DNA of 64,000 nt. Origin: Bacteroidota bacterium (lineage in GTDB: Bacteria > Bacteroidota > Bacteroidia > AKYH767-A > 2013-40CM-41-45). The stretch is from assembly GCA_026391975.1 (NCBI GenBank), contig JAPLDB010000110.1, positions 3,535-67,534 of the forward strand, in the 5' to 3' direction. Both the position numbers and the translations under genes were made by a program. The notes beneath the pieces were generated by a model. That model saw nothing but the letters and a program-made list of their open reading frames with translations. It was not told the DNA's origin and made no database searches. Numbering within the stretch: position 1 is the first letter of the stretch; each line of letters starts with the position of its first letter. Of the stretch, positions 8,789 through 58,339 are shown piece by piece.

Positions 8789-8978
8789 TGGGTTTATTTT
8801 AGTTAGCGAATATATGGAGGTGCCTGATACTTCGTTGATGGGCTAAATTTGTTTATTAAGTTGAATGGTTAATTGGTTAATTATGTTTATTCGGAACAGC
8901 CGCACTTACTGAATCAGCAATTAAACCAATCATTGTTTATCAATTCAAACTACCTTTACACGCTATTAAATTCAACTG

Positions 8979-9737
8979 ATGAAAAGCACTCTCACATTTT
9001 GCATGCTCCTCACATTAATTCTCGGAATAACATGCAGATTTTCCTTCGCGCAAACAGATTCCAACCTTGTTCATGTCAATGGACGGGTTTATGATCCTGC
9101 CACACCCAAACCCGATCTCAATAATTTTATGATCGTTGATATGGAAACCCAGCACGGGTTTTATGGTAAGGCAGATGGCTCTTTCAGCATTGACATCAAT
9201 AAAAATGACACACTTGTAATAGCTGTTATAGGATATGAATTTGTAAAATATTGCTTCAGGGATTCTATTCCAAAAGAACGATACGATCTCCTCGTCAGGC
9301 TAAAAAGAAAAGAAATTCAACTTCCGGAAGTCCGCGTCATTGCTCCGCGTGATCTTGAAGCCATCGAACGCGATATTCAGAAACTTGGATACAACAAACG
9401 GGATTATGAGATCAGCGGGATCAATGCACTTGAAAGTCCAATCACTTTTTTATATGAAGAATTCAGCCGTTTTGAGCAATTGCGCAGGCACAATGCACAA
9501 ATCGTGAATAATGAAAAGCGACGGAACCTGCTGAAAGAACTGCTTTCAAGGTATGTTGCTGATGACATTATTAGCCTGAGTAATGACGAATTCGAACATT
9601 TCATTGACTTCTGTGATGTCAATGAGTCATTCATGAAATCTGCTTCCCAATACGACTTCATGGTTTTTATCAAACGTAAGTTCGAGATGTTTGAAGCCAT
9701 GAATGACTATTACAGACCGAATAGGAAGTATAGGTGA
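8979..9737 (+). CDS. Hypothetical secreted protein with an N-terminal carboxypeptidase-regulatory-like (CarboxypepD_reg) beta-sandwich
   Basis: Signal peptide MKSTLTFCMLLTLILGITCRFSFAQ. Followed by ..VHVNGRVYDPATPKPDLNNFMIVD..GFYGKADGSFSI. Confidence 0.5.
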   Translation: MKSTLTFCMLLTLILGITCRFSFAQTDSNLVHVNGRVYDPATPKPDLNNFMIVDMETQHGFYGKADGSFSIDINKNDTLVIAVIGYEFVKYCFRDSIPKERYDLLVRLKRKEIQLPEVRVIAPRDLEAIERDIQKLGYNKRDYEISGINALESPITFLYEEFSRFEQLRRHNAQIVNNEKRRNLLKELLSRYVADDIISLSNDEFEHFIDFCDVNESFMKSASQYDFMVFIKRKFEMFEAMNDYYRPNRKYR

Positions 9738-9786
9738 GGAGTTGAGTAGTTGAGTAGTTGAGTGGGTGATTAGGTGATTAGGTAGC
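9733..9786. repeat. 8-bp tandem repeat (TAGTTGAG / TAGGTGAT) straddling the stop codon of the 8979-9737 gene
   Basis: ggtgaggagttgagtagttgagtagttgagtgggtgattaggtgattaggtagc. The downstream region 9811-9850 carries complementary-orientation units (tcaaccta..). Confidence 0.55.
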
Positions 9787-9854
9787 AGCCAAAAACAACA
9801 ACGAGAGGTTAATTCTTTCCCTATTCAACCTATCAACCTAATTAACCAATCAAC

Positions 9855-9862
9855 TATCTTTG
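9855..9862 (+). promoter_or_regulatory. Bacteroidota sigma-A -7 box candidate (TATCTTTG, TAnnTTTG consensus) 5 bp upstream of the ATG at 9867
   Basis: Motif match only. It implies a leaderless or very short-leader mRNA. Confidence 0.3.
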
Positions 9863-9866
9863 CATT

Positions 9867-10715
9867 ATGAAAACGATTTATTACACATCATTCGCATTGC
9901 TGTTTGCTTTGGCGATCATAACCACTGGTTGCAAAAAAGAAAAGGAAGAAGATTATGACACACAGTCTTCTCAAGACAATGCACAATCTGAAAACATCTT
10001 CAATGAGATCAATGAAATTGCTGATCAGGCAGTTGAAGATGGTCAATTGAGCACGCACCGTTTTGGGTCCGGAGAATCCGGCTTACTAACTTCCTGTGCA
10101 ATGATCACTGTCAATATTGATACTACAGACGGATCAGGCACAGCAATAATTGACTTCGGATCGCACTTCTGTCAGGGAAATGATGCCAAGTTCAGAAAAG
10201 GACAGATCAATGTCAGTTTCACCGGTGCCTATAGAAATGCAGGAACAGTGATCACCATGAATGCAATAAATTATTTTGTTGGATATGATTCGTCATATGC
10301 CACTAAAGTAAACGGACAACGGGTGGTTACAAACAACGGTTTGAACAGTTCAGGAAACCCGAATTTTTCAATACAGGCGAATGCCACTCTGGTCAACTAC
10401 CTGAGCCAGCAAATGACATGGAACAGTACGCGCAACAGGGAATGGATTGCCGGCGACAGCACTACTTCTTGGGTTGATGATGAATATCTCATTACAGGAA
10501 GTGCAAACGGAAAGAGTTTTGCAGGAGTAAACTTTAGTGCTTTAGTGACACAAGCGTTGCACGTTAAGTTAAGCTGCCGATGGATTACTGAAGGGAAGTT
10601 CACACTCACACCTGAAGGTAAACCGGAACGTTATTTAGACTACGGCAACGGAACCTGCGACGGAGATGCAACAGTAACCATCGGTGATAAAACATACCAG
10701 GTTACTTTAAGGTAG
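9867..10715 (+). CDS. Hypothetical lipoprotein
   Basis: Lipobox ..IITTGCKKEKEED after a signal peptide. 282 aa with no recognisable family. Confidence 0.55.
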   Translation: MKTIYYTSFALLFALAIITTGCKKEKEEDYDTQSSQDNAQSENIFNEINEIADQAVEDGQLSTHRFGSGESGLLTSCAMITVNIDTTDGSGTAIIDFGSHFCQGNDAKFRKGQINVSFTGAYRNAGTVITMNAINYFVGYDSSYATKVNGQRVVTNNGLNSSGNPNFSIQANATLVNYLSQQMTWNSTRNREWIAGDSTTSWVDDEYLITGSANGKSFAGVNFSALVTQALHVKLSCRWITEGKFTLTPEGKPERYLDYGNGTCDGDATVTIGDKTYQVTLR

Positions 10716-10737
10716 TATTGCCGCGCAAATTTTCTCA

Positions 10738-10950
10738 ATGAATTCCATGTATATTCTAAAGGTTAGAGGCACAGCAAAAATTCCGGACTACATTCAGTTG
10801 AGGGGTGATGACTTTACACTTATTGCGTATTTCCGTGTCGACCGCCCTGAGAAAGCACTCACCAAAGCAGGTCTGGCAGATAAGGCAGAACAAATTATGA
10901 AATCCATTGTTGAAATACCTTATGGAAAAATGCTAAAGCTGGATATATAG
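10738..10950 (+). CDS. Small hypothetical protein (70 aa)
   Basis: ORF only. Plausible spacing after the upstream gene, no family recognised. Confidence 0.3.
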   Translation: MNSMYILKVRGTAKIPDYIQLRGDDFTLIAYFRVDRPEKALTKAGLADKAEQIMKSIVEIPYGKMLKLDI

Positions 10951-10986
10951 TTGATTGGTTGAGTGGTTGAGTGGTTGATTGGTTCG
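10948..10986. repeat. 8-bp tandem repeat (TTGAKTGG) immediately after the stop at 10948-10950
   Basis: tagttgattggttgagtggttgagtggttgattggttcg. Confidence 0.55.
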
Positions 10987-11001
10987 TTATAAAAAATTTC
11001 A

Positions 11002-11682
11002 ATGTCAGAAGCAATTGTAAAACTTACAGGTATAAATATTTATCAGTCTAAAAACCTGATACTCTCCGGCGTAAACCTGCAAATTGACAAAGGTGAATTT
11101 GTTTACCTCATTGGTAAAACAGGCAGCGGGAAAAGTTCATTGTTAAAAATGATTTATGGAGACGTAGAACTGGTTGAAGGCGAAGGTCACGTTGCCGGCT
11201 TTTCTCTAAACAACCTGAAGAAAAAACAAGTCCCTTATCTCAGAAGAAGACTCGGTATCGTATTTCAGGACTTTCAGTTGCTCACCGACCGTAGCATCAA
11301 TGACAACCTTCTATTTGTACTGAAGGCAACCGGATGGAACGACAAATCAAAAATGCTGTCGCGGGTAAATGAAGTATTGGAGAAAGTACACCTGACAACG
11401 AAAGGATTTAAAATGCCGCATGAATTAAGTGGTGGAGAACAGCAACGCGTTGTCATTGCCCGTGCATTGCTGAACGACCCTGAATTGATTCTTGCCGATG
11501 AACCAACAGGAAACCTGGACCCTGAAACATCTGACAGCATCATGCGTCTTCTTTTTGAGATCAGCAATTCCGGTCGCGCAGTATTAATGGCAACACATAA
11601 TTATTCTTTGATGGATAAGTTTCCAGCACGAACGATCAAGTGCGAAAACGGAAAAATAACAGAGGAATTACAATCGGCCTGA
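11002..11682 (+). CDS. ftsE: Cell-division ABC ATPase FtsE
   Basis: Walker A GKTGSGKSS, ABC signature LSGGEQQRVVIARAL, Walker B ILADEPTGNLD. At 226 aa the size fits FtsE. Confidence 0.75.
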   Translation: MSEAIVKLTGINIYQSKNLILSGVNLQIDKGEFVYLIGKTGSGKSSLLKMIYGDVELVEGEGHVAGFSLNNLKKKQVPYLRRRLGIVFQDFQLLTDRSINDNLLFVLKATGWNDKSKMLSRVNEVLEKVHLTTKGFKMPHELSGGEQQRVVIARALLNDPELILADEPTGNLDPETSDSIMRLLFEISNSGRAVLMATHNYSLMDKFPARTIKCENGKITEELQSA

Positions 11683-11698
11683 CAAAGCCATCCATTGA

Positions 11699-12883
11699 TT
11701 ATAGAAAGAGCACCTTCAATATTTTTTTTCCATTCTCAATATTGGAGAAATCCCTGAGCAAAATCTCTTCACGCTTCTTTCGCTCTCGGTCAGTAAATTC
11801 TTTTTCGAATACTAATTTTACTTTCTCCTTCATTGCTTCAGGAGAATTTGCCATGATACATAATGGTTCGAGTCCTGTATTTTCAACCATTGGCTTGTTG
11901 ACAATGCAAAATCGTCCTGCAAAAAGTGCCGAAAGCAGCTTTAGTTTTATTCCTGTCGACTGAAACGTAGGAAGTATGTTGCAATGCGCTTCAGCAATAT
12001 ACTCCTGGATCTGATCATGTGAAAGATCGTTATGCAAAGCAACATTGGATTTTGTTCTGACAATTTTCTTAAGCTCATCAGAAGGCTTGCTCCCGGCAAT
12101 GATGAGTTGTTGATCGAGATCGTTAAATACTTTGTTTACTAAATAAAGCGCAGCTTCGTTGTTTTCCCCCACTGACAGGTTCCCATGGTAAAAAGCATAA
12201 TCCCCCTTACCTGTTTTGCATGTCACTGTTTCATGCGGATGAAATGCTGTTACATAATGGACATGCTCATACTTCGATGAAAAGTATTTTGTGTCATTCG
12301 GTGAAATGGCAAAAATTCCAGAAGCATTTTTTAGCACAGGTTCATACTTAAGTAATTTGCCGGCTTCATTGTAAAAATAATAACGCTTGAAAATATTCCC
12401 TTCAACCTTTGCGAGGTTTTCGTAATAGTCGTGTTCCACATTATGGGAGCGCACGTACATTTTCCGTTTACCAAAATCAGGATCCCCGAGCCAACGGGTA
12501 GAATGCAGGCCTTCCATGAAAATGGGAAAATTATTTTTCAGAAGGTTTTTTTTTAGCTCATCTGATTCCCTGCTAAGCACGATATACGGGTATGTATTAA
12601 AAAGCTGGCTCTTTGAAGTTCTCCGGGAATAATAATGGATAGAAGAACAGATACTTTTTAATTCATCGGCGCCCTTACGGCCATATTCGAAACAATGCAA
12701 GTGTACATTTACTCCGAGCGCATGCAACGATTTGATCTTATAGAAAACATCAATCACACCCCCATAATCAGGAGGGTAAGGAACATCAAATGCAATAAGG
12801 TTTATATTCTTTTCAGAGGACGTCACGGAAAATCTGCAGCAGCTTTTGTTCTTCTTTTTCCCAGCATAGTTCTGCGGCTGCAA
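11699..12883 (-). CDS. Glycosyltransferase, GT-B fold (GT1/GT4 family)
   Basis: 394 aa with a GT4-like C-terminal half. Overlaps the next gene by about 70 bp, so the true start may be internal or non-ATG. Confidence 0.65.
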   Translation of the reverse strand: MQPQNYAGKKKNKSCCRFSVTSSEKNINLIAFDVPYPPDYGGVIDVFYKIKSLHALGVNVHLHCFEYGRKGADELKSICSSIHYYSRRTSKSQLFNTYPYIVLSRESDELKKNLLKNNFPIFMEGLHSTRWLGDPDFGKRKMYVRSHNVEHDYYENLAKVEGNIFKRYYFYNEAGKLLKYEPVLKNASGIFAISPNDTKYFSSKYEHVHYVTAFHPHETVTCKTGKGDYAFYHGNLSVGENNEAALYLVNKVFNDLDQQLIIAGSKPSDELKKIVRTKSNVALHNDLSHDQIQEYIAEAHCNILPTFQSTGIKLKLLSALFAGRFCIVNKPMVENTGLEPLCIMANSPEAMKEKVKLVFEKEFTDRERKKREEILLRDFSNIENGKKILKVLFL

Positions 12884-13922
12884 GTTTCAGATTTTCCTTC
12901 CACGTGTCAAATCTTTTTTCATCAGAAAGCATTTCTTTAATCCGTTCTGCCAAATAAACAGGATTATGGCTTTCTGCGATCATCCCGACCTTGTATCCAT
13001 CCACTATCTTTCTCAATTCCAAAAGGTTAGAGGACAAAACAGGCAGGCCTGCATGGATATAATCAAAGATCTTATTCGGAAGGGAATACCGATAGTTGAT
13101 ATTGGTGTCTTTATCGAGCGACAATCCAATGTCTGCAAGAGCCGTATAAGACTGTAATTCATGAAAAGGAAGCCTTGCAATGAAGCGAACTTTTTCTGCC
13201 ACCTTAAACTGAACAGCCATTTCTTTCAGTCTGTTCATCACATCTCCGCCTCCAATGAAAAGCAACAGGCAATTGTCAAGGTATTGCATTGCCTCAACGG
13301 CCTCTTCTCCTCCCCTGTCAATATTGATTCCGGCGCCCTGGAACAGCAGAATTTTTTTATCGGCAGGAAGATTCAATTCTGCTCTCGTACGAACAGCCAG
13401 AGGCCTGGTAGAAAATGGTACGTTCCTGATCACACCTACTTCTTTCCTGTATTCGTCACTGTAAAGCTTTGCGATAGAATCATTCACAGTCCAGACATGC
13501 GCTAGTTTGGGAAAAATCCACCGTTCAATGCTTTTCCATATTTTCTGAATTTTCGGCCGGCTGACCAGTTCCGGTACTTCTGTAAAATACTCATGTGCAT
13601 CATAATACAACTTGGCTCCTTTAAGCTTTGAAATCAGGTAATTAGGCAGAAGGGTATCAAGGTCATTTGAGACAAGTACATCCACCTTATTAAACAGCAA
13701 AAAGAAAAAAAGCCGAAGATTATACGCCCCATAAAACAATGCTCCTTTCTCCCACCAAAGCTTAAAACGGACAGTTTTGTAGGACCTTGAAATATCCTGA
13801 CTGTCACCTTTCCTGCGGCCAACAAGGATTACTTCATGGCCCGTTCCTGAAAGCGTAGTCGCAGTGCGGTGTACCCGTTGATCGGTAACCAGGTCGCTCA
13901 CAACTGAAATAATAATCCTCAT
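12813..13922 (-). CDS. Glycosyltransferase family 4 (GT-B)
   Basis: 369 aa. The C-terminal half has the retaining GT4 nucleotide-binding Rossmann fold (..EGFGL-like region FQGAGINIDRGGEE..). Confidence 0.65.
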   Translation of the reverse strand: MRIIISVVSDLVTDQRVHRTATTLSGTGHEVILVGRRKGDSQDISRSYKTVRFKLWWEKGALFYGAYNLRLFFFLLFNKVDVLVSNDLDTLLPNYLISKLKGAKLYYDAHEYFTEVPELVSRPKIQKIWKSIERWIFPKLAHVWTVNDSIAKLYSDEYRKEVGVIRNVPFSTRPLAVRTRAELNLPADKKILLFQGAGINIDRGGEEAVEAMQYLDNCLLLFIGGGDVMNRLKEMAVQFKVAEKVRFIARLPFHELQSYTALADIGLSLDKDTNINYRYSLPNKIFDYIHAGLPVLSSNLLELRKIVDGYKVGMIAESHNPVYLAERIKEMLSDEKRFDTWKENLKLAAAELCWEKEEQKLLQIFRDVL

Positions 13923-14072
13923 AATCTGTAATCAGGGGCAATTAACTCAAAATTACCTGTAATAACGCCCTTACAAATACTTTATTGTTCAGCGGTTATT
14001 GTCTATTTTTGTTAAACAAAATGGCAGGCAATTCTTGTGATTAAAATCATATTTGCCATGGATGTATTACTT

Positions 14073-14080
14073 TATTTTTG
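14073..14080 (+). promoter_or_regulatory. -7 box candidate TATTTTTG upstream of paaA
   Basis: TAnnTTTG match located 10 bp before ATG 14090. Confidence 0.3.
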
Positions 14081-18666: not shown

Positions 18667-19794
18667 ATGACGAACAGGAAGAAGCTACTTTTCATATTTG
18701 GAACACGTCCGGAAGCAATCAAACTTGCGCCCCTTGTTCTTGAATTCAGGAAACATCCACAATTTGATGTGAAGGTATGCGTGACTGCACAGCACAGGCA
18801 AATGCTGGATCAGGTGCTTGCGTTTTTTGAGATCACCCCTGACTATGATCTTGACATCATGAAGCCCAATCAGACATTGTTCGATGTAACAGCTGATGGG
18901 CTCAAGGCAATGGAGAAAGTGCTGAAATCATTTGAGCCATCTCTTGTTTTTGTTCAGGGAGATACCACAACATCTTTCATTGGTGCATTGGGCGCGTATT
19001 ACTGCAAAATAAAAGTCGCACACATTGAAGCCGGTCTCCGCAGTGGAAATAAATACTCTCCATTCCCTGAAGAAGTGAACCGCATACTTGCAGGGCACCT
19101 CAGTGACTATCACTTCACCCCTACTCCGCAAAGCGATGCCAACCTGAAAAAAGAAAACATCACTGAAAATATATTCGGTGTAGGCAACACAGTAATAGAT
19201 GCATTATTCCTTGGACTTGATCTGTTGAAGAAACGCGGCGAAGAATCCTTTCAAGCATTTTTTAAGGAAATTGATCTTTCGAAAAGGATGGTGCTCATCA
19301 CCGGGCACCGCCGTGAAAGTTTCGGCGAACCATTTGAAAATATTTGTGAAGCAATTAAAACATGTGCGGAAAGATTTCCAGCAGTGGAATTTGTTTATCC
19401 GGTGCACCTCAACCCGAATGTACAGCAGCCGGTAAACCGCATGCTAAGCGGATTGAAGAATGTTCATCTCATTGCCCCTCTCGGCTATGAGCATTTCATC
19501 TGGCTAATGAACAAGAGTTATGTTGTTCTCACAGATTCAGGCGGCTTACAGGAAGAAGCACCGGCGCTTGGGAAACCGGTTCTCGTCATGCGCGAAGTTA
19601 CCGAGAGACAGGAAGGCGTTGATTCAGGCACGGCGAAACTGGTAGGAACCAATAAACAACTTATCATAGATGAGCTTTCGCTGCTGCTTTCTGATACCAA
19701 GGCCTATGATAAAATGGCAAAGGCTATCAACCCATACGGCGACGGCACGTCATGTAAAAAAATCGTTGACATCGTAGCAAAACTGAAATTTTGA
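18667..19794 (+). CDS. wecB: UDP-N-acetylglucosamine 2-epimerase (non-hydrolysing)
   Basis: 375 aa with a strong family match (..LLFIFGTRPEAIKLAPLV.., ..HIEAGLRS.., ..LTDSGGLQEEAPALGKPVLVMRE..). Confidence 0.85.
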   Translation: MTNRKKLLFIFGTRPEAIKLAPLVLEFRKHPQFDVKVCVTAQHRQMLDQVLAFFEITPDYDLDIMKPNQTLFDVTADGLKAMEKVLKSFEPSLVFVQGDTTTSFIGALGAYYCKIKVAHIEAGLRSGNKYSPFPEEVNRILAGHLSDYHFTPTPQSDANLKKENITENIFGVGNTVIDALFLGLDLLKKRGEESFQAFFKEIDLSKRMVLITGHRRESFGEPFENICEAIKTCAERFPAVEFVYPVHLNPNVQQPVNRMLSGLKNVHLIAPLGYEHFIWLMNKSYVVLTDSGGLQEEAPALGKPVLVMREVTERQEGVDSGTAKLVGTNKQLIIDELSLLLSDTKAYDKMAKAINPYGDGTSCKKIVDIVAKLKF

Positions 19795-20345
19795 TGTCAA
19801 GGCTCCTTTACTTGTTTTTTTTTCGGTTGGCAGGATGGAAGATCGAAGGCTTGATGCCCTCAGAAAAAAAGTACATCATTATTGTTGCACCTCATACCAG
19901 CAACTGGGATTTTATGATCGGACTTTGTGCAAGAAGCATCCTGCGTTTTGATGCAAAATTCCTTGGCAAAAAAGAACTTTTTCGTTTTCCATTTGGCGCC
20001 TTGTTCCGATGGCTGGGAGGCGTTCCTGTAGACAGAAGTAAAAATGTAAACCTTGTAGATGCCGTAGCGAATCTTTTCAATGAACGGGAAAATTTTATTG
20101 TGGCCATTGCCCCGGAGGGAACAAGAAAATATGTTGCCCAGTGGAAAACGGGTTTTTATTTCATGGCTCTCAAAGCAAAGGTTCCGATTGTAATGACAGC
20201 CTTTGACTATCCCAAAAAAACAGTAATCATCAACCAGCCCTTTTACCCTACCGGTAATCTGGCTGAGGATATGAAAACCATTTTCGGCTTTTTCAGGGAT
20301 AAGAAGGGGAAATTTCCGAAGGAATTACCGAAGCAACTAAGCTGA
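19791..20345 (+). CDS. Lysophospholipid/1-acyl-glycerol-3-phosphate acyltransferase family protein
   Basis: HX4D acyltransferase motif HTSNWDF and the PEGTR motif (IAPEGTRKY). Its start overlaps the wecB stop by 4 bp. Confidence 0.7.
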   Translation: MMSRLLYLFFFRLAGWKIEGLMPSEKKYIIIVAPHTSNWDFMIGLCARSILRFDAKFLGKKELFRFPFGALFRWLGGVPVDRSKNVNLVDAVANLFNERENFIVAIAPEGTRKYVAQWKTGFYFMALKAKVPIVMTAFDYPKKTVIINQPFYPTGNLAEDMKTIFGFFRDKKGKFPKELPKQLS

Positions 20346-20524
20346 ATTCGAATTTACTCATTACTAGCAGTAGCACCTTGTTACGTGCCGTTCTCAAAAT
20401 TCTAAGCGCTTTGAATCTTTTCCACCAACCCAAATCCCGGCTTTCCCTTGCCTCCACTCCCTCCCCCATTTTGCCCTCTCCTCTAAAAACCATACGTTTG
20501 AAAAGTAAACCCTAATCCCCATTT

Positions 20525-20780
20525 ATGCCCCTCAGATGGAATGAAATCCGTTCGCGTGCCATACGTTTTTCGAAGTAATGGGAAGATGAAACCAATGAAG
20601 ATGGCGAGGCGAAATCCTTTCTCGTTGGCTTCTTTGATGTGTTTGGCATCTCGCGCAGGAGATTGGCCACTTTTGAAAAACGAGTACGCCTTTCCCCTCG
20701 CTGGTCGTAGAAAAGTCGCTAACCGTAGCATATTGCTGTGGTCATTTGCAAAATCACAATATCTTCGCCCGCTTCGATAG
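20525..20780 (+). pseudogene. Decayed N-terminal remnant (~85 codons) of an MmeI/PglX (YeeA)-family type IIG/IIL restriction-modification or BREX methyltransferase gene
   Basis: Translation MPLRWNEIRSRAIRFSK*WEDETNEDGEAKSFLVGFFDVFGISRRRLATFEKRV matches the conserved N-terminus of MmeI/PglX-type enzymes. There is an in-frame TAA, then a frameshift, and the remaining ~800 codons are absent. Confidence 0.6.
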
Positions 20781-20810
20781 AACAGTTTGCTAACATTAAA
20801 CTGTATCTCC

Positions 20811-21596
20811 ATGAACAAACAAAACTTCGTAACGATATTTTTGCTGAATTGCATCTCCAGCTTACTATGTGCGCAAGACTCAGCAGTGCGAATTGACAAT
20901 AAGGAAATTACTCTTTTAGATAATTCGTACACTTTTAAGGATACTACTCAAAAAATATTCTTAAAGAATAACCAATCCGAAGTTTGGAACCTGAGGCAGG
21001 AAATTACAAAATTACATTTTGACCACTGCAATCACAATGAACTCAATATTCTTCTTTATTCTGATACAACCGGAGAAATTCCGTTTGTTCAAATAATCAC
21101 CGGAACAAGTTTGTTAAAAATTGATAGCACAATTATTTCAATCGAGAAAAGTTATTCTAAAAAATTGAAGCCGGTGTTATTTGAAGGCTCACTTCAACGC
21201 TCTCTGATTTACGTTAAGTATATGTTCCATTACAGAAAGAAGGAAGAAGATTTAGCAAGGACAAACGGCAATTACAATGAAACCGAGGTGATGAGAATGT
21301 TTGGCACAGCAATAGGAAATAATGAGACAAATGAATGTGATGACGATGCCATTTTCTATGATGCGGGAGTGAAATGTTTTCAACAAGAAGATTTTAGCAA
21401 AGCAATTTATAATTTCAATCAGGCAGTAGAAGCAAATCCCTGGGATTGGGATGCTGTTTACAATCTTGGACTTTCTTACCAGAAAACAGATAAATTGAAA
21501 AAGGCTTGCGACTGTTTTTCAAAGGGGATTGAAGCAGGTGATATTATTGCAGTCCAAGCGTATAATCAATTTTGTTCGGAAATGAATAACAAGTAA
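20811..21596 (+). CDS. Hypothetical secreted protein with C-terminal TPR-like repeats. The ORF starts at 20787; the signal-peptide Met at 20811 is preferred.
   Basis: Signal peptide MNKQNFVTIFLLNCISSLLCAQ. TPR-like helices ..AIYNFNQAVEANPWDWDAVYNLGLSYQKTDKLKKACDCF.. Confidence 0.5.
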   Translation: MNKQNFVTIFLLNCISSLLCAQDSAVRIDNKEITLLDNSYTFKDTTQKIFLKNNQSEVWNLRQEITKLHFDHCNHNELNILLYSDTTGEIPFVQIITGTSLLKIDSTIISIEKSYSKKLKPVLFEGSLQRSLIYVKYMFHYRKKEEDLARTNGNYNETEVMRMFGTAIGNNETNECDDDAIFYDAGVKCFQQEDFSKAIYNFNQAVEANPWDWDAVYNLGLSYQKTDKLKKACDCFSKGIEAGDIIAVQAYNQFCSEMNNK

Positions 21597-50549: not shown

Positions 50550-53500
50550 TTAGAAAGTATCAAGGTCAATCGGACGAAGCACGCCGAAGAATTTAATGGT
50601 CTTCTCTCCAACGCCAGGTGCCTCCACATGGATAATATACAAGCCACTGGCAACCGGAATTCCTGCTGAGTTTTTCAGATCCCAATCTATCGAACTTTCA
50701 AGGTTCAGGTCGGCCTTCGGATCATAGATTCCGCCTGCGGTGTTATCGCCTGCAACATCACGATTGTACTTTCTGATGAGTGTTCCGCTTGGTGTAAATA
50801 TGCTGACGGTACACTTTGGAGGCAGGTTCACAATTTTCACGCGGTAATCCAGCTGGTTCTTCTCATATTGAGAATATGCATAGTATGGATTTGGAACTAC
50901 ATTAATGTTGTCAAGCGCGGACTTCGCTTTTTCACCGTTCCTTGTTTTAGGAACCAGGTCATTTGTTGAAAACTGATAGAGCGGGAAACTGTCATTTAAA
51001 GCAACTGCATTCGGATTGAATTTAGCGTATGGCTTAGCAACACGAATACGAATCGTTACGTCATTCTTATAGCCGCTGCCTGTTCCATAAAAATCAGGAA
51101 GCTGTTCACCTGAAGCTAATAACGGATATCCTACCCACATGCAATTGCCCCAGGTTCTGTTCCATGTAGATGTTTTGGTTATTGAATCCCCCAATGCCTT
51201 TGTCCCATCATAGGCTCCAACATAGGCGGTATGCGAAAATACGTAAATCACATGGCGTCCGCCAAGGATGTATTTTCCATAGGCATCAGTATCGGTAAGA
51301 AGTGAGTTTGGATTCCATTTCATATCTTCTCCATTACCATTAGAATAACCATGTGTCGGCCCATAATAGCTGTTTTCGCCGAAAGCAATATTCAGTCGTT
51401 CACCTGTTTCTACATTCACAGCATAACCCGGGAACCAGCTATAACCTGTGTCACCCGCAACTGTATTTCCATTTTTGTCAATGGAGAAACTCCGCCTCAG
51501 TTTCATGCGCTTGGCATCGGAAGTAGTAACACTGACTGTCAGCGTATCAGAATATGATTGTTCAATTACGGGGCAATAACTCCACTTGGACTTGTCTGTA
51601 GTAATCACCACATCGATGCTGGCCTGATTAAAAAATCTGTTCTGACCGAAAGCATTGCTATTGTTAGCCGGTCCGTTATTGAGATAATCATAAGAAGTGA
51701 AACGGTAAGGCGCCCATGAACCCCCGATAATTTTCTCATAAACCTGCTGGCCGTCAAATTCACCACTATTGAATTTATAGTCGGTAGAAGTTTCCTTACC
51801 GCTGCGAATCCAGTTTAAGCCGGGATCTCCGTCAAAATCATAAACTCCTCCCCACCACCTTTGTGTAGGACTTTCATAGGTAATTGATGAGTTGATGAAT
51901 CCTGCGCCACCTGTTGCATCATCTCCTGGCTGGTAAGCCTTCTGAGGTGTTTGTGCCATGTTGATCGAGAATCCATAATTCGGGAACAACTGATCATAAG
52001 GCGATAAAATACTCTTCAAAGAAGTATCAGTGGTTCCGGCTGCAGGATTGCTCAATACCCAGAGTGTATCAACTGCTATATAATGTGGAATTGTATCAGT
52101 ATAGGTGCCTAAGTACTTGTCATGGTTGATCGTGTCAGAAGCATCTTCAAAAGTGTCAACTTTTGCAATTTCCTTTAATTGAAATACACCGCCTTCAACA
52201 GAAATAGGATCATAAATTCTGATATCCACAGGACCTTTCGCCCTTTCATAGGTTGGATGACTGATCATGTAAGGTGCAGCAAATAAATTATTGTAGTCTG
52301 CATCCCTCTTCAAATCAAGTGCGAGGCGGTCTCCTCCAAGCTGATGTCCGTTTCCTGTTCCTTCAAGGCGGGTAATTTCAGGTCCGTCACCATAAGACGC
52401 GCTCAAAACAGTACCATAGATTTCAGGATCCGGTGAATGCGGAATGGCTGTGTAGATCTTGATGTTTTTTCGGCCTGACAGGTAAGGCTTATTTCTGCCT
52501 GTTGGAACATAAGGATCTGATGCTGATTCCCCCGGATTATATGCATAGGCTACAGCAAGGAAATAATACGTTTTGTGGTTCACCATTGTTGGATCACCTG
52601 AAGCGAACAAATCGTTTGTAACCCTGAAAGTATGTTTCAAGCCATTGTCACTGCCATTCACTTCTTCAACAGGTGTCCATCCCTGTGTGGTCTGATCAAA
52701 TGTATTATTAACGATTTGAGAAATACCATCCTTGACGTCACACTGAACTACCAGTCGTGCCTTATCAGGATTGTGAACATCTGAAACAGTAACAAACGGA
52801 TCTACGGTTTGAAAGATCTGGTAACCCTGGAAATTATAGTAACTGGCAATTGTGGTATTCGGATCAACTTCGCTGTATTTCTCCTTGTAGTTATTAGAGA
52901 GTTTTGAGTTGTCAATAGATAAAATAATCCCCTTGTCCAATTCCCTGATCGTCATTTCAGGTGCATCAGGTCCGTCAACAACTTTGAAGCAATTATTAAA
53001 CAGTGCCTGTGCATAGTCGTCTGCCTGACGCACAAGACGAACTGATGCAAGTGGTCCGCCATTGGTTGCCCTGGCCCATACCGCACCTGTTGTAATATAA
53101 TTTACAGCTCCCGGCAATAAGGTGAATGGACCTGAAGATTGTAAGAACCTTCTGTCGTCAGGAAGATTCTCAGCAGTAACTTCATCCCAATCAGCTTCCG
53201 GAAGTCCGTTCGTTCCCCAATGATTTGGATCTGAATTCCCCGGGAACATAAAGTCACAAAGGTCATTTGTTCCACCTACTCCGCCCCCATGACCGTCGCC
53301 ACCATAAGTCATCCGGTTTCCATTACGCCAGATACCCTGAAGGTATCCATAATAATCTTCAGCACCATTTGGGTTACCTACGATTGGATCATTATTGTTA
53401 TTGTAATACACAAATTTTGACATGATGATGTTCTCACGCAGTATCGAATCAGAGATTGTGTCGATAGTACCCTGTGCATTTGGTACGAACGTACAATCAA

Positions 53501-54599
53501 TACAACTGTCACGGTCATTATCACGGTTATCATTAATGTCTGCAACAGGACCCTGGAAAAAATCCACACCCACAGCTGGAGGATTGAATCCATAACCTGC
53601 AATACCTTCATCATTGGCATCACCGTTATAGCAATACCCAAATCCGCGCTTCACATCACAACCAACATAGTCATCAAGGTAATTACCCAGATCAGGATCA
53701 ACCCATGCTCCGAAATAGCAACTGTCAATATTTGTAGTTGTATTCCTGTTGATGATCTTGTATTTATAAAAACTCATGTTGTTGATCTCATCGTTTGTTG
53801 CAAAAGCAAATGCCTGTGCCTGGATCTCGAGACCAATAGGATACTGGCTGTCTGTTTCGCGGTGGACATTTCCTACATCATTAAATACCCACCACAATGA
53901 CTGGTCACCCAGCATTCTGTCATCGCAAACGGGAGCGCTTGAATTGAATTCGAAATAAGGGTAATCGCCATCTTCCCAGTTATAGATACCATCCACATTT
54001 CTGTCAAAGAAAGGAGCGAGGAAATGAACGTAACCTGCACCTGCACCATGTTCAGGATCATCGCCATTTCCGGGCCAGTCCTGCATCACCTGTGGTGGCA
54101 GATAGCCGGCAGGATAACCGCCCGCATTTGCATCAAAATTGGCAATTGCCTGCTGAACTTCATCTCTTGTTACCCTGAAGTGCCTGTCGAATTTGGTACA
54201 AACATCAGGCGTAACATCTGTTGTTGTAAGATTCACCGGACCGGGCCAGAAATCATCTCCTGACTGTCGGTATGTTTGTGCTGCTACGCGCAGATTTTGA
54301 GAATTATCATATCCTCCAACCCAGACAGCACCGGCAAACAATGAATGTTTTCCTGAACCCTTGGGTACTTCATAGGTTGCTGTCCCAACAAGATCCCACC
54401 ACATATCACCATTGATAAAGATCCTGGTCCTGATGTTGTTGATGTCAAGATCCGTTTGTGCAGTTGACTTATTGCAGGAAGCAAGCACATGGTCACCGCC
54501 AATAGGTCCGTTGCGATGCCCTGAGTTTACATTTTCCTTTGCAGATAATAAACTGACTGAAAGGACTGTGAAAAGTGATGTTAAGATAATTTTTCTCAT
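50550..54599 (-). CDS. Large (~1350 aa) secreted cell-surface protein ending in a type-B-like T9SS C-terminal domain. The ORF extends to 54632; MRKIILTSLF at 54599 is the preferred start.
   Basis: Signal peptide MRKIILTSLFTVLSVSLLSA. Asn/Gly/Trp/Tyr-rich beta-rich body. The C-terminal ~110 aa (VVPNPYYAY..PKCTVSIFTPSGTLIRKY..WDLKNSAGIPVASGLYIIHVEA..KTIKFFGVLRP) match the pattern of the gliding-motility-associated (type B) CTD (..CTVSIFNRWG..WDG.n.G..lp.GtYfY....G.v.L.R). Confidence 0.55.
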   Translation of the reverse strand: MRKIILTSLFTVLSVSLLSAKENVNSGHRNGPIGGDHVLASCNKSTAQTDLDINNIRTRIFINGDMWWDLVGTATYEVPKGSGKHSLFAGAVWVGGYDNSQNLRVAAQTYRQSGDDFWPGPVNLTTTDVTPDVCTKFDRHFRVTRDEVQQAIANFDANAGGYPAGYLPPQVMQDWPGNGDDPEHGAGAGYVHFLAPFFDRNVDGIYNWEDGDYPYFEFNSSAPVCDDRMLGDQSLWWVFNDVGNVHRETDSQYPIGLEIQAQAFAFATNDEINNMSFYKYKIINRNTTTNIDSCYFGAWVDPDLGNYLDDYVGCDVKRGFGYCYNGDANDEGIAGYGFNPPAVGVDFFQGPVADINDNRDNDRDSCIDCTFVPNAQGTIDTISDSILRENIIMSKFVYYNNNNDPIVGNPNGAEDYYGYLQGIWRNGNRMTYGGDGHGGGVGGTNDLCDFMFPGNSDPNHWGTNGLPEADWDEVTAENLPDDRRFLQSSGPFTLLPGAVNYITTGAVWARATNGGPLASVRLVRQADDYAQALFNNCFKVVDGPDAPEMTIRELDKGIILSIDNSKLSNNYKEKYSEVDPNTTIASYYNFQGYQIFQTVDPFVTVSDVHNPDKARLVVQCDVKDGISQIVNNTFDQTTQGWTPVEEVNGSDNGLKHTFRVTNDLFASGDPTMVNHKTYYFLAVAYAYNPGESASDPYVPTGRNKPYLSGRKNIKIYTAIPHSPDPEIYGTVLSASYGDGPEITRLEGTGNGHQLGGDRLALDLKRDADYNNLFAAPYMISHPTYERAKGPVDIRIYDPISVEGGVFQLKEIAKVDTFEDASDTINHDKYLGTYTDTIPHYIAVDTLWVLSNPAAGTTDTSLKSILSPYDQLFPNYGFSINMAQTPQKAYQPGDDATGGAGFINSSITYESPTQRWWGGVYDFDGDPGLNWIRSGKETSTDYKFNSGEFDGQQVYEKIIGGSWAPYRFTSYDYLNNGPANNSNAFGQNRFFNQASIDVVITTDKSKWSYCPVIEQSYSDTLTVSVTTSDAKRMKLRRSFSIDKNGNTVAGDTGYSWFPGYAVNVETGERLNIAFGENSYYGPTHGYSNGNGEDMKWNPNSLLTDTDAYGKYILGGRHVIYVFSHTAYVGAYDGTKALGDSITKTSTWNRTWGNCMWVGYPLLASGEQLPDFYGTGSGYKNDVTIRIRVAKPYAKFNPNAVALNDSFPLYQFSTNDLVPKTRNGEKAKSALDNINVVPNPYYAYSQYEKNQLDYRVKIVNLPPKCTVSIFTPSGTLIRKYNRDVAGDNTAGGIYDPKADLNLESSIDWDLKNSAGIPVASGLYIIHVEAPGVGEKTIKFFGVLRPIDLDTF

Positions 54600-54640
54600 A
54601 ATGATATGAATAGAATTCTTAGCTGTTGTCAAATATTTAA

Positions 54641-57600
54641 TTAAAAGTCAAGTTGCAATCCAAGACGGATACGCCTTGGCAGACTGTAATTACCCTGGTT
54701 GTTTTCTGCGATTTCATACTGTGTAATATAAGCATCCGTACTCAGCTTGCTGCTAATGTCATTTTGTGCTGCTGCTGACGAAAGGTATCCGTCGTCTGTC
54801 GGACTACCGGTTGCAGAATAAACAGATATTACGTTACGCGCATCGAACACATTCAGCACTTGTAAATACACTCCGAGGAAATAGGCCCTTCTCTTTTCGC
54901 CATTTGCTTTCTTGCCCATCTTCAGCTCAAACTGTTTGTCAATTTTTGCATCAACACGATACTGCCATGGTAAACGAGAACCATTCACTGAACCATCCAG
55001 CTGGAAGCGGCCATTGGCTGCTGTTGTGAAATCTGACTCAGGTGTAATGTTCTTTTTGCGTGTATAAGGTGTACCTGATCCTGAACGGAATGTAAAGTTC
55101 AATCCGGCATTTGCGAAAACCTGTTTGTCAAACCACACAGGACCGTCGTAATCTTTGCCTTTTCCATAATGGTAATCAAAAGAAGCAGTAAGCTGGTGGC
55201 GCTGATCAAAATCCAGTGGCTTAGGCTCTCTCAGATTTGTTTGTCCCTGCTGGGCGATCAGTCGTCCGTTAGAACCGGCATTCGAACCTGTACCTTCAGC
55301 AAACTGTAGCGTATAGCTGGCAGTCATTCTGATGTTACCTGTTCTTCTCAGGTCATAACTTAATGTAAGACCTTTAACTGTACCTATATCTATGTTACCA
55401 TAAGTATAATAGTCGATCGGATAAGCATATTGAACGCTGATCACCTGGATCATATCACGTAACTCCTTATAGAAAGCAGAGAGCGACAACGCTGAACTCC
55501 TTGTCAGTTTTTGCTGGAAGGTAATTTCATAGTCAGTTGTCTTTTCCGGTTTCAGGGAAGGATTGGAATTGGTAAGTGAAGATCCCTGTGCAAGTGCATA
55601 ATATAGATCCGGGCGGAACTGGATCAGGCCTGCAGCTTGCGGACGTTGAGTAAGCACATCATAATGGGCGGAGAAGAATGCCTCGTCGGAAATCGGGAAT
55701 GAGAAAGCGATACGCGGCATAAATGTCGTTTGAGGCTCATAATCTCCGAATGCATCCGGCGTGAGAAGTCCCTTATCCATTAAATCAAAATATTTCTCCT
55801 GAACGAATGGCGCAATGCCGGTTCCACTTTGATTGGCAAGCGTATTTACATCCGTGATGCTGTTACCCTGTGCGTCAAACCATTTGTCACCTTCACGGAA
55901 ACCAATTGGTCCTGAACCGGAAGGATTTTTCACATCGTTCACGTAAACAACTGCATCAGAAGAAATATTGGTTGGCAGGTTGTAATAAGGGAACCTGTTT
56001 TTCAAAGCTTCTGAACCGGCTGTATAAGCAGGGTACAACAAATATTTGTCTTTCAATACAGGCTGGTTTGCATCGAAACGATCCACACGCACACCAATAT
56101 TAAACTGAATGTCATTAAAGATAAACTTATCAGCTATATAACCTGCTACATAGATCGGACGGAAAGCACCCATCGGACGGGTGAAATTGTTTGTCTTGTC
56201 TTTGTTGTTGATGAAGTCCGTGATACTCGGATTTTCCGTGGTTTTATTTCCCAGGTAATCATATCCATAGTATCCGACAAATCCGAAGTTCAGCAATTCA
56301 TCAGTAGTGAACATGTCAAGAGAAAAATCTTCCGGCGTGTAGTTGTCAATGTCTACATAGCGGTGATAATTGATACCGAACTTATCGCGTACGTTTTCAT
56401 AAAAACCATTCGCTGCTTCGTCTGCAAGATTTCGGGTCTGATTATAGAGGAATTGAAAATTAGCAACGGTATCCTGATTGTCAATTGTAATGTAAGGATT
56501 GGCTTCAAAATTGATGAGTCTTGAATTAGCCAGTCCACGCATCAATGACCACAATCCGCTTGGAGAAACGCTGTATCCCCTGTCTTCCCGCTGCTCATAT
56601 TCAAAACCAAGCACAACGTTGTGATTCTTGATATCTGCAGAGCCCGAAGCAACAATTCGGAACTGGTTGTTTTCTGATTTACCATAAAAAGTTCTTGTCC
56701 GGCCCGGTAACGCCCACAAGCCGTATGTATTCAACGTAAGACGGTTATCACCATTGATGATACCATTGTTAGAAACAACCTGACCAAGCGTAAAGTCTCC
56801 CGGATTCAATTCAAAATACTGAGAAGCAAAAGCAGAAGTATAAGGACTTCCGGCATAAGGCTCATAGTCAAGCGGAGCAGTTATTGCAACATCCTGAAAA
56901 ATGGCATCAATGAAGGAAGTGTCATTTCCCTGAATGTACTCATATGAATTAGGCAATCTGAAATCAGCAAGGTGTGTGGTAAATTTTCCTACATAACCAT
57001 AACGGAAAATCTTATCCATGTGCACATCATTTCCGTCTTCGCTTGAATTCTTTGTGTAGTCAGCCTGCAAAGTATAAAAAGCATGTTTCACAACTGATGC
57101 GCTGGTCTTTTGCGCTTCGTCATCACCAAAACGTTGCTGGATCTTTGCAAATACACGGTAAGACTGATCTGTAACCTGATTATTGTAATAAGAATTCATC
57201 AATGAATAAATGTCGATGAAATCATGTCTTTTCTCGTGTTCATACGTTCCACCCAGTGTTATGTAGAAGTTTTTTATCGGCCTGAAATCAAGTTTTCCAT
57301 TGATCACATAATTATGCCTTGCTACATTTTTTCTTTCCTTTTGATGATCAAGGCTATCATAGGTAAGATACTCACCGCGCCTGTCAAAACCTTCACCTGT
57401 CGGAGATTTAACCAGTGGAGAACTCTCCAGCCTTTTCTGAACATCATCTTTCACTACATATTGTCCGATTGCTGAAGGACTCGGACCTTTGTCATACAAC
57501 CAGTCTGCAGAAATAAAATACCCTGCTACTGTGGTCTTCTTACCTACTGAATCATGAGATGAAATAATAGGTCCTGAAAAAGATGCAGACAACCGGTTAT

Positions 57601-58339
57601 TGTCATACGCATCGATGAAATGAGATGACTCTCCTTCCAGTCCGTAATGAAACTGTGGAGAAGGTCCCCTTGTAGTAATTGAAACGATACCACCTGTTGC
57701 ATCCCCATATTGTGCCGGAACACCACCTGTAATCACAGTGATCTGCTCTGCGCCTTTGGCAGTAATATTTGAACCTCCTCTTACTTTAATACCATCAACA
57801 TAATATGCTGTACCATCAGAACGCGAACCACGAACGTTCAACTCCTTGCCATCATCACGTTGAAAAACGCCTGCAGACTGGGAAGCAATTGAATTTACGT
57901 CACGCGTAGGAGCCGCCTGGATTTCTTCAAATGTCATTGTCTTCTGAACAGATGTTTGACCCTTATCCAACAACGGAACCTTGTAATCCACGATCTGGAC
58001 TTCGCCGATGTCAATACCCTTACCCATCTCCATGTTTACAAAAGAGATTTTGTCAACTGTAATCAGTACACCATTCGTTTGTGCCGGACTGTAACCCACG
58101 CAGGTTGCCTTGAGGTCATACTTTCCCGGTCCGAGTGGCTTCAGGGTATAATTTCCATCAAGGTCAGTAACAGTCGCAATGATCTGTTGCCCACCTTGTG
58201 TAGCTGCAACACTTGCAAAAGGAACTCCGTCCTTTCCACCTCTTTCTTTGATCTGCCCGCGGATTTCGCCGGATTGCGCAATTGCATTGGAAAAGATGAA
58301 GCTGAAAAGAAAAAGCGATAGGTAAAAATTACGTCCCAT
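54641..58339 (-). CDS. Giant (1232 aa) TonB-dependent-receptor-like outer-membrane protein with an N-terminal CarboxypepD_reg domain and plug
   Basis: Signal peptide MGRNFYLSLFLFSFIFSNAIAQ. CarboxypepD_reg (..IRGQIKE..GVPFASVAA..TDLDGNYTL..). Plug motif ELNVRGSRSDGTAYYVDGIKV. Long beta-barrel ending ..LQLDF. Followed 9 bp later by the next gene. Confidence 0.65.
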   Translation of the reverse strand: MGRNFYLSLFLFSFIFSNAIAQSGEIRGQIKERGGKDGVPFASVAATQGGQQIIATVTDLDGNYTLKPLGPGKYDLKATCVGYSPAQTNGVLITVDKISFVNMEMGKGIDIGEVQIVDYKVPLLDKGQTSVQKTMTFEEIQAAPTRDVNSIASQSAGVFQRDDGKELNVRGSRSDGTAYYVDGIKVRGGSNITAKGAEQITVITGGVPAQYGDATGGIVSITTRGPSPQFHYGLEGESSHFIDAYDNNRLSASFSGPIISSHDSVGKKTTVAGYFISADWLYDKGPSPSAIGQYVVKDDVQKRLESSPLVKSPTGEGFDRRGEYLTYDSLDHQKERKNVARHNYVINGKLDFRPIKNFYITLGGTYEHEKRHDFIDIYSLMNSYYNNQVTDQSYRVFAKIQQRFGDDEAQKTSASVVKHAFYTLQADYTKNSSEDGNDVHMDKIFRYGYVGKFTTHLADFRLPNSYEYIQGNDTSFIDAIFQDVAITAPLDYEPYAGSPYTSAFASQYFELNPGDFTLGQVVSNNGIINGDNRLTLNTYGLWALPGRTRTFYGKSENNQFRIVASGSADIKNHNVVLGFEYEQREDRGYSVSPSGLWSLMRGLANSRLINFEANPYITIDNQDTVANFQFLYNQTRNLADEAANGFYENVRDKFGINYHRYVDIDNYTPEDFSLDMFTTDELLNFGFVGYYGYDYLGNKTTENPSITDFINNKDKTNNFTRPMGAFRPIYVAGYIADKFIFNDIQFNIGVRVDRFDANQPVLKDKYLLYPAYTAGSEALKNRFPYYNLPTNISSDAVVYVNDVKNPSGSGPIGFREGDKWFDAQGNSITDVNTLANQSGTGIAPFVQEKYFDLMDKGLLTPDAFGDYEPQTTFMPRIAFSFPISDEAFFSAHYDVLTQRPQAAGLIQFRPDLYYALAQGSSLTNSNPSLKPEKTTDYEITFQQKLTRSSALSLSAFYKELRDMIQVISVQYAYPIDYYTYGNIDIGTVKGLTLSYDLRRTGNIRMTASYTLQFAEGTGSNAGSNGRLIAQQGQTNLREPKPLDFDQRHQLTASFDYHYGKGKDYDGPVWFDKQVFANAGLNFTFRSGSGTPYTRKKNITPESDFTTAANGRFQLDGSVNGSRLPWQYRVDAKIDKQFELKMGKKANGEKRRAYFLGVYLQVLNVFDARNVISVYSATGSPTDDGYLSSAAAQNDISSKLSTDAYITQYEIAENNQGNYSLPRRIRLGLQLDF

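Follow-up and report, generated by a model that had tools for sequence, protein, structure and literature searches.

The closest described counterparts of the sequence analyzed here are the enzymes of the MmeI family, in which the nuclease domain of MmeI itself comprises residues 1-155 (Callahan et al. 2016, PMC4833311). The catalytic residues D70, E80 and K82 of this domain were defined by Morgan et al. 2009 (PMC2731913), who also highlighted the residues E25 and E51 and divided the MmeI homologues into two groups. One of these groups carries an N-terminal PD-ExK domain, whereas the proteins of the YeeA-like group are unlike MmeI in their first 100 residues and are encoded by genes flanked by helicase genes (Morgan et al. 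2009, PMC2731913). The YeeA-type homologues are devoid of the nuclease, and GIY-YIG genes belong to their flanks as well. Disrupted open reading frames of the MmeI family have moreover been described in natural isolates (Morgan et al. 2009, PMC2731913).

The window, i.e. the whole stretch of 64 kb of DNA from an uncultured Bacteroidota bacterium to whose positions all coordinates refer, contains a gap of 465 bp between an acyltransferase gene (19791-20345, PF01553) and a gene encoding a TPR protein (start at 20811). The remnant of an MmeI-family gene is located in this gap, exactly between the two genes named by an earlier sequence-only reading of this DNA. The frame starting with the ATG at position 20525 reads MPLRWNEIRSRAIRFSK, a TAA stop codon (20576-20578), WEDETNEDGEAKSFLVGFFDVFGISRRRLATFEKRV, RLSPRWS and a further stop, and the peptide MPLRWNEIRSRAIRFSK-stop-WEDETNEDGEAKSFLVGFFDVFGISRRRLATFEKRV that had been noted earlier is thus correct. 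The part of this frame with homology to the MmeI family is a pseudogene stub of 161 bases on the forward strand (20525-20685), corresponding to codons 1 to approximately 54 of a Type IIG/IIL restriction-modification (RM) gene. The in-frame TAA on the same strand replaces codon 18, which is a Glu codon in 47 of the 49 intact relatives; the TAA can therefore be deduced to represent a single G-to-T change from GAA. The stub is separated from the acyltransferase stop codon by a spacer of 179 bp (20346-20524) with a C/T-rich run at about 20440-20485, and a Bacteroidota-type promoter-like motif, TTTG-N19-TAcgTTTG (20470-20500, forward strand), ends 24 nt 5' of the ATG. On the other side, the stub is followed by 84 bp (20686-20769) that are not MmeI-derived in any frame and by the TPR gene's own leader (20770-20810, forward strand), which is conserved with the locus L174 of a TPR homologue (30/37 identities over bases 20770-20805, E=0.002).

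The similarity to the N-terminus of MmeI that had been read from the letters was confirmed by four types of searches. A phmmer search against all PDB chains yielded one strong match, an ungapped alignment to residues 1-55 of MmeI (5HR4) with an E-value of 1.4e-16. The Pfam model MmeI_N aligned over its positions 2-47 (of 181) and scored 28.8 bits, above the gathering threshold of 27, and the single PADLOC family matched by the stub was REase_MTase_IIG, with PDLC03598 aligned over 3-55 of its 912 positions at an E-value of 2.1e-9. Intact relatives were collected by searching metagenome contigs at the DNA level for the stub peptide, which provided 80 loci, and a custom profile of 49 distinct intact relatives was run on all inter-stop segments of the six-frame translation of the window. 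This profile detected both halves of the stub at 20516-20575 (positions 1-17, E=2.6e-4) and 20579-20707 (positions 19-55, E=1.5e-14); beyond these, nothing better than an E-value of about 4 was obtained in the six frames of the 64 kb.

The 3' limit of the stub was determined by DNA alignment, in which the homology with the closest locus, L094, and with other relatives extends from the ATG to TTTGAAAAACGAGT (CGAGT), ending at position 20685. A tblastn search of the 64 kb with the full-length relatives P0037, P0084 and P0055 matched 20525-20692 and nothing else. Both the upstream spacer (20346-20524) and the sequence downstream of the stub (20686-20769) resembled nothing in the related loci compared (2.27 Mb) or in the rest of the window. 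The comparisons show that the MmeI-derived stretch ends at about 20685/20686, where a deletion or rearrangement has cut the gene after codon 54. A subsequent frameshift had been assumed in the sequence-only reading; since no downstream frame carries profile positions beyond 55 and the gene therefore continues in no frame, the end of the similarity represents a truncation breakpoint rather than a frameshift. Likewise, the end coordinate 20780 assigned to the relic belongs to an unrelated, mechanically called ORF in another frame (20541-20780) without a Pfam match.

Several other interpretations of the gap were rejected. An internal deletion that had kept the 3' end of the gene was discarded, as profiles of the last 40 and last 80 residues of the 49 relatives missed the region among their 12 best matches in the window. 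The +1 frame just 3' of the stub reads LLKNEYAFPLAGRRKV, which is weakly similar to the last residues of P0084 (E=2 with a database of 470 bp), and a continuation in another frame (ILLW versus GYIDLLW, 20730-20741) was without profile support. The idea that a T9SS-cargo gene had left its 3' end in front of the TPR gene, as in L174, was not retained because the significant similarity is limited to the last 37 nt before the TPR start. A 13-nt direct repeat that brackets the TPR gene, GAAAAACGAGTAC (20675) and GAAAAACGACTAC (21610), was considered as a target-site duplication, although a repeat of this kind is at chance level in 2 kb, and the MmeI sequence does not resume after the second copy. 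A structured RNA in the gap was not detected by Rfam up to E=1. An antisense ORF of 149 aa (20483-20932) and an ORF of 79 aa (20541-20780) are without Pfam matches and were regarded as mechanical. Gene callers applied to the identical contig from a Logan assembly (L012, 4052-4691, reverse strand) likewise reported antisense ORFs of 149 and 66 aa across the stub and the gap; since the antisense ORFs have no Pfam match and overlap the start of the TPR gene, they are probably spurious calls provoked by an unannotated pseudogene region.

The stub represents about 6% of an MmeI-family gene and comprises the first third of the PD-(D/E)XK nuclease domain, located 5' of the catalytic residues. As the similarity ends at codon 54-55, the residues equivalent to D70, E80 and K82 of MmeI are absent, and the helical spacer, the gamma-class N6-adenine methyltransferase, the target recognition domain (TRD) and the C-terminal domain are missing from the whole 64-kb window according to the profile and tblastn searches. 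The reading frame of the remaining part is interrupted by the TAA at codon 18. The stub encodes nothing functional and confers neither restriction nor modification. In terms of the MmeI family as defined by the structure 5HR4, the Pfam domains MmeI_N, MmeI_hel, MmeI_Mtase, MmeI_TRD and MmeI_C and the PADLOC family PDLC03598, codons 1-54 align without gaps to residues 1-55, but the sequence is the relic of a family member and not a working one. The interpretation as a non-functional relic of an RM gene, put forward in the sequence-only reading on account of the in-frame stop and the missing remainder, is therefore retained.

The intact relatives provide information on the size of the lost part. 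Of 56 ORFs whose stop codon lies inside the contig, 52 encode proteins of 898-979 aa, and the other four are truncated at 550, 185, 92 and 88 aa. With relatives of this length, about 870 codons are missing from the stub; the sequence-only reading had given some 800. The closest locus over the stub, L094 (87% identical amino acids, 74% identical nucleotides), encodes a 927-aa protein with the complete series MmeI_N, MmeI_hel, MmeI_Mtase, MmeI_TRD and MmeI_C, which matches PDLC03598 end to end with 1215 bits. In L094, the MmeI gene is preceded by a gene for a DUF4145 protein with a weak PD-T7-4 match and directly followed by a gene for an Mrr-type restriction endonuclease (Mrr_N and Mrr_cat; PADLOC PDC-S02, mREase_IV); together, these genes (8865-13700) make up a small group of defence genes on a contig from Bacteroidota.

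The comparison with the 49 intact relatives also revealed the degree of decay. Codons 1-54 of the stub retain every residue that is invariant in these relatives, whereas four states are unseen among them: R4 (normally S), the stop at codon 18 (E), G27 (A) and V34 (D), each of which is one base change away from the common codon. These four changes indicate a modest neutral decay. With respect to L094, the stub differs at the first, second and third codon positions in 3, 5 and 34 cases, respectively, corresponding to 27 codons with exclusively synonymous differences and eight amino-acid-changing codons. This pattern suggests that most of the divergence accumulated under protein-level selection while the gene was functional, and therefore that the inactivation was comparatively recent and the period of neutral decay comparatively short.

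The region is most probably the dead remnant of a single-polypeptide MmeI-type RM gene that was lost by deletion or rearrangement and afterwards drifted neutrally. According to this model, the acyltransferase gene would once have been followed by an MmeI-family gene of a Bacteroidota lineage with approximately 900-980 codons. One end of a deletion or rearrangement would have fallen immediately 3' of codon 54; this event would have removed the remaining gene and possibly neighbouring DNA, so that the stub came to be joined to DNA located about 125 bp in front of the TPR gene. Neutral drift would then have introduced the stop at codon 18 and altered three further residues that are otherwise conserved. 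The identity and limits of the stub, the lack of the remainder, the reproducibility of the sequence and the break in synteny are observed, whereas the presence of the full gene at this site, its loss there and the order of these events are the conjectural part of the model. The nearest intact homologue, L094, has a DNA identity of 74%, and hence no direct progenitor is known.

The genomic context of the stub was compared with that of related loci on both flanks. A genome-collection scan with the acyltransferase yielded 80 loci for the left flank, of which L014 to L017, all from MAGs of Bacteroidota/Flavobacteriales, encode acyltransferases with 80-92% identity. These four loci keep the block of hydratase, family 4 glycosyltransferase, epimerase and acyltransferase genes, and the similarity stops exactly at the acyltransferase stop codon. 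The gene content 3' of the acyltransferase differs in L014, L016 and L017. In L014, it includes what we take, from the ORF translation, to be a fasciclin-like secreted protein along with others, and in L017 it consists of large secreted proteins. In L016, three ORFs of 497, 132 and 96 aa (11462-13661) presumably constitute an IS66-like transposase cluster, as assumed from their translations; this cluster is located about 0.9 kb 3' of the orthologous acyltransferase gene, which fits a rearrangement hotspot. Since synteny ends at the acyltransferase stop codon in each of L014 to L017, the position of the stub is a synteny breakpoint, and the region around it is fluid. The right flank is variable as well: homologues of the TPR protein (P0158, P0159 and P0160; 68-84% identity) occur in three further contexts, L174, L175 and L178, and this difference in neighbourhood suggests that the TPR gene moves or occupies variable regions. 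At the syntenic position, whose inspection had been suggested earlier, an MmeI gene, be it intact or partial, was found neither in the 80 acyltransferase loci nor at the three loci of TPR homologues. Since none of the sampled relatives carries an intact MmeI gene on either flank, we infer rather than demonstrate a full-length ancestor in situ.

The same observations bear on an alternative origin, in which the stub arrived in truncated form by recombination or horizontal transfer, for instance along with the low-GC segment of the TPR gene, and was never complete at this locus. Such an origin would be in line with the failure of both stub flanks to match other sequences, with the different contexts of the TPR gene in each relative, with the lack of an MmeI gene on either flank of the relatives, and with the GC content of the TPR gene (20811-21596; TPR_1, TPR_2, TPR_11), which amounts to 0.31-0.36 as compared with about 0.41-0.46 nearby. 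On the other hand, the loci L174, L175 and L178 do not contain an MmeI fragment upstream of the TPR homologue, and the stub starts exactly at its own ATG, with the promoter-like motif suitably spaced in front of it, which is what a resident gene would leave behind if its 5' end were kept. An arrival in truncated form is consequently regarded as unlikely, although it retains some probability.

The surroundings had also been taken as a hint at a former defence island, a proposal that found no support. The ten nearest neighbours encode an enoyl-CoA hydratase, a family 4 glycosyltransferase, a UDP-GlcNAc 2-epimerase, the acyltransferase, the TPR protein, a KOW protein, a PAP2 protein, a PepSY-like protein, a DUF347 protein and a sulfotransferase, that is to say housekeeping proteins with metabolic or cell-envelope functions, and a PADLOC search of these ten proteins gave 0 matches. 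According to Pfam, paa genes and genes for glycosyltransferases, a class IV aminotransferase and DsbD are also located nearby, and genes for an SMC protein and a TonB-dependent receptor are found further away. The locus shows no sign of a present-day defence island. Elsewhere in the window, an ORF of 1360 aa (50550-54632, reverse strand) without a Pfam match at E<=1e-5 is positioned directly 3' of a gene for a TonB-dependent-receptor-like protein of 1232 aa (54641-58339; CarboxypepD_reg, Plug and beta-barrel).

N-terminal fragments of MmeI-family genes are not restricted to this locus. A first protein search retrieved solely short proteins with MmeI_N, among them two from unrelated contexts that end near codon 53-64. 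P0001 (66 aa; L001, 5495-5695, also in L002-L006) is uninterrupted, located between Rce1-like and ATPase_2 genes and present in nine contigs from several samples, and P0004 (83 aa; L007, 8001-8252, also in L008-L010) is uninterrupted as well and follows a different gene set. Both are encoded by Bacteroidota metagenome contigs in contexts unlike that of the window, with no remainder of the gene nearby. An exhaustive HMMER search resulted in 1482 matches, mostly to short proteins with scattered end points. A recurrent breakpoint, in the sense of a specific integration or recombination site, was rejected in view of these scattered end points and of the 52 full-length ORFs among 56 in the DNA-based sample; the codon-position patterns likewise show that the stubs diverged while the genes were still functional and that each truncation was an independent event. 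As merely four of 56 ORFs are truncated in this length-unbiased sample, the excess of short matches is best explained by contig-end fragments that form their own clusters. Most of the other truncated metagenome copies (P0001, P0004, L101, L120 and L139) are longer or still uninterrupted, whereas the stub of the window is cut after codon 54, contains a nonsense codon in addition, has housekeeping flanks and lies at a synteny breakpoint. Five large proteins of 2579-3755 aa (P0009, P0012, P0027, P0058 and P0069) matched residues ~10-40 of the stub (WEDETNEDGE...) repeatedly; the PDB search gave a weak match of this stretch to repeats of the collagen adhesin Cna as well. The similarity is one of composition or repeats and has nothing to do with MmeI.

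The motif TTTG-N19-TAcgTTTG follows the promoter consensus of Bacteroidetes and occurs five times in the window, compared with 2.6 matches expected by chance. Two of the other matches are located near ORF starts according to the ORF table, at 13948-13977 before the start at 13922 and at 14052-14080 across the start at 14078. The motif at 20470-20500 may once have served the lost gene as its own promoter and, more speculatively, the surviving element may read toward the TPR gene. If 5' stubs of MmeI genes were preferentially kept because a downstream gene, here that of the TPR protein, captured their active promoter, they would be small regulatory fossils with a function instead of pure junk, and the occurrence of N-terminal-only MmeI ORFs in several unrelated Bacteroidota contexts would be explained; this idea is nevertheless considered to be quite improbable.

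A direct function under selection, either as a short ORF whose N-terminal MmeI peptide acts on a related enzyme or as a regulatory leader of the TPR gene, is even less credible and has very little probability. The N-terminal-only MmeI ORFs in unrelated contexts of other metagenomes (P0001 in nine contigs, and P0004) and the preserved promoter-like motif could be quoted in its favour, but the TAA at codon 18 leaves a peptide of 17 residues, four states are unseen among the intact relatives, none of the relatives compared at either flank carries the stub, and an Rfam match is lacking. Moreover, the end points of stubs elsewhere vary widely (53, 57, 58, 60, 64, 68, 75, 78, 83, 97, 185 and 550 codons), and the four truncated ORFs among 56 complete ones attribute the excess of short protein matches to clustering and contig-end bias.

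The nature of the lost enzyme was assessed with respect to the described groups of homologues. The sequence-only reading had assumed a consensus common to MmeI, YeeA and PglX and had left a BREX system as an option; the N-terminal sequence turned out to be specific to the nuclease-bearing MmeI group, as deduced from PADLOC and from Morgan et al. 2009 (PMC2731913). The stub aligns to residues 1-55 of MmeI and keeps both E25 and E51, which assigns it to the nuclease-bearing group on the basis of that study, and the intact relatives inspected carry the nuclease motif D-x9-E-x-K, for example GYIDLLWKGQILVEMKS. A remnant of a BREX PglX or of a nuclease-less YeeA-type homologue, implying the loss of a BREX or helicase-linked system, could be argued from the gamma-class N6-adenine methyltransferase core that PglX has in common with MmeI, yet this region, which both PglX and YeeA-type proteins share with the MmeI family, is absent from the stub. 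The PglX models of PADLOC match the intact relatives weakly, with 15-20 bits over the methyltransferase motifs at residues ~336-429, and the NCBIfam search of these proteins returned exclusively BREX-6 PglX with 24 bits as opposed to a cut-off of 900, whereas the Type IIG model PDLC03598 covers them end to end with 1190-1215 bits. The stub itself matches PDLC03598 and none of the PglX models of PADLOC, and no NCBIfam model was matched. Furthermore, BREX genes (PglZ, BrxC/PglY, BrxL and others) were not found nearby, where Pfam assigned housekeeping domains to the neighbours and PADLOC was applied to the ten nearest proteins, and a helicase gene is missing among the neighbours annotated by Pfam. 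The lost gene is therefore predicted to have encoded a stand-alone, nuclease-bearing Type IIG/IIL enzyme of the MmeI type and not a BREX PglX, and it would not have been of the YeeA type as judged by the literature description alone (PMC2731913); a PglX or YeeA ancestry is accordingly seen as extremely improbable.

An assembly artefact or a chance similarity has a practically negligible probability in view of E-values from 1e-14 to 1e-16 and of 476 bp across the gap, including the TAA, that are 100% identical in the Logan assemblies L011 (SRR20698652) and L012 (SRR20698643) from different sequencing runs. The sequence of the epimerase protein of the window was also identical in Logan assemblies of other runs. 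The agreement of three assemblies argues against a sequencing error in the stub, and the recovery of an intact gene by error correction, mentioned as a caveat to the sequence-only reading, is thus unlikely.

Taken together, the stub between the acyltransferase and TPR genes is a pseudogene fragment of the ordinary kind, derived from a well-known family. For the annotation, this means that the region should be labelled as a Type IIG/IIL MmeI-family pseudogene fragment and not as a hypothetical ORF, and little beyond that. With respect to the organism, it means that an MmeI-type enzyme is currently lacking. Moreover, the locus provides one small example of how restriction genes are gained and lost at positions where the gene order differs between related genomes.
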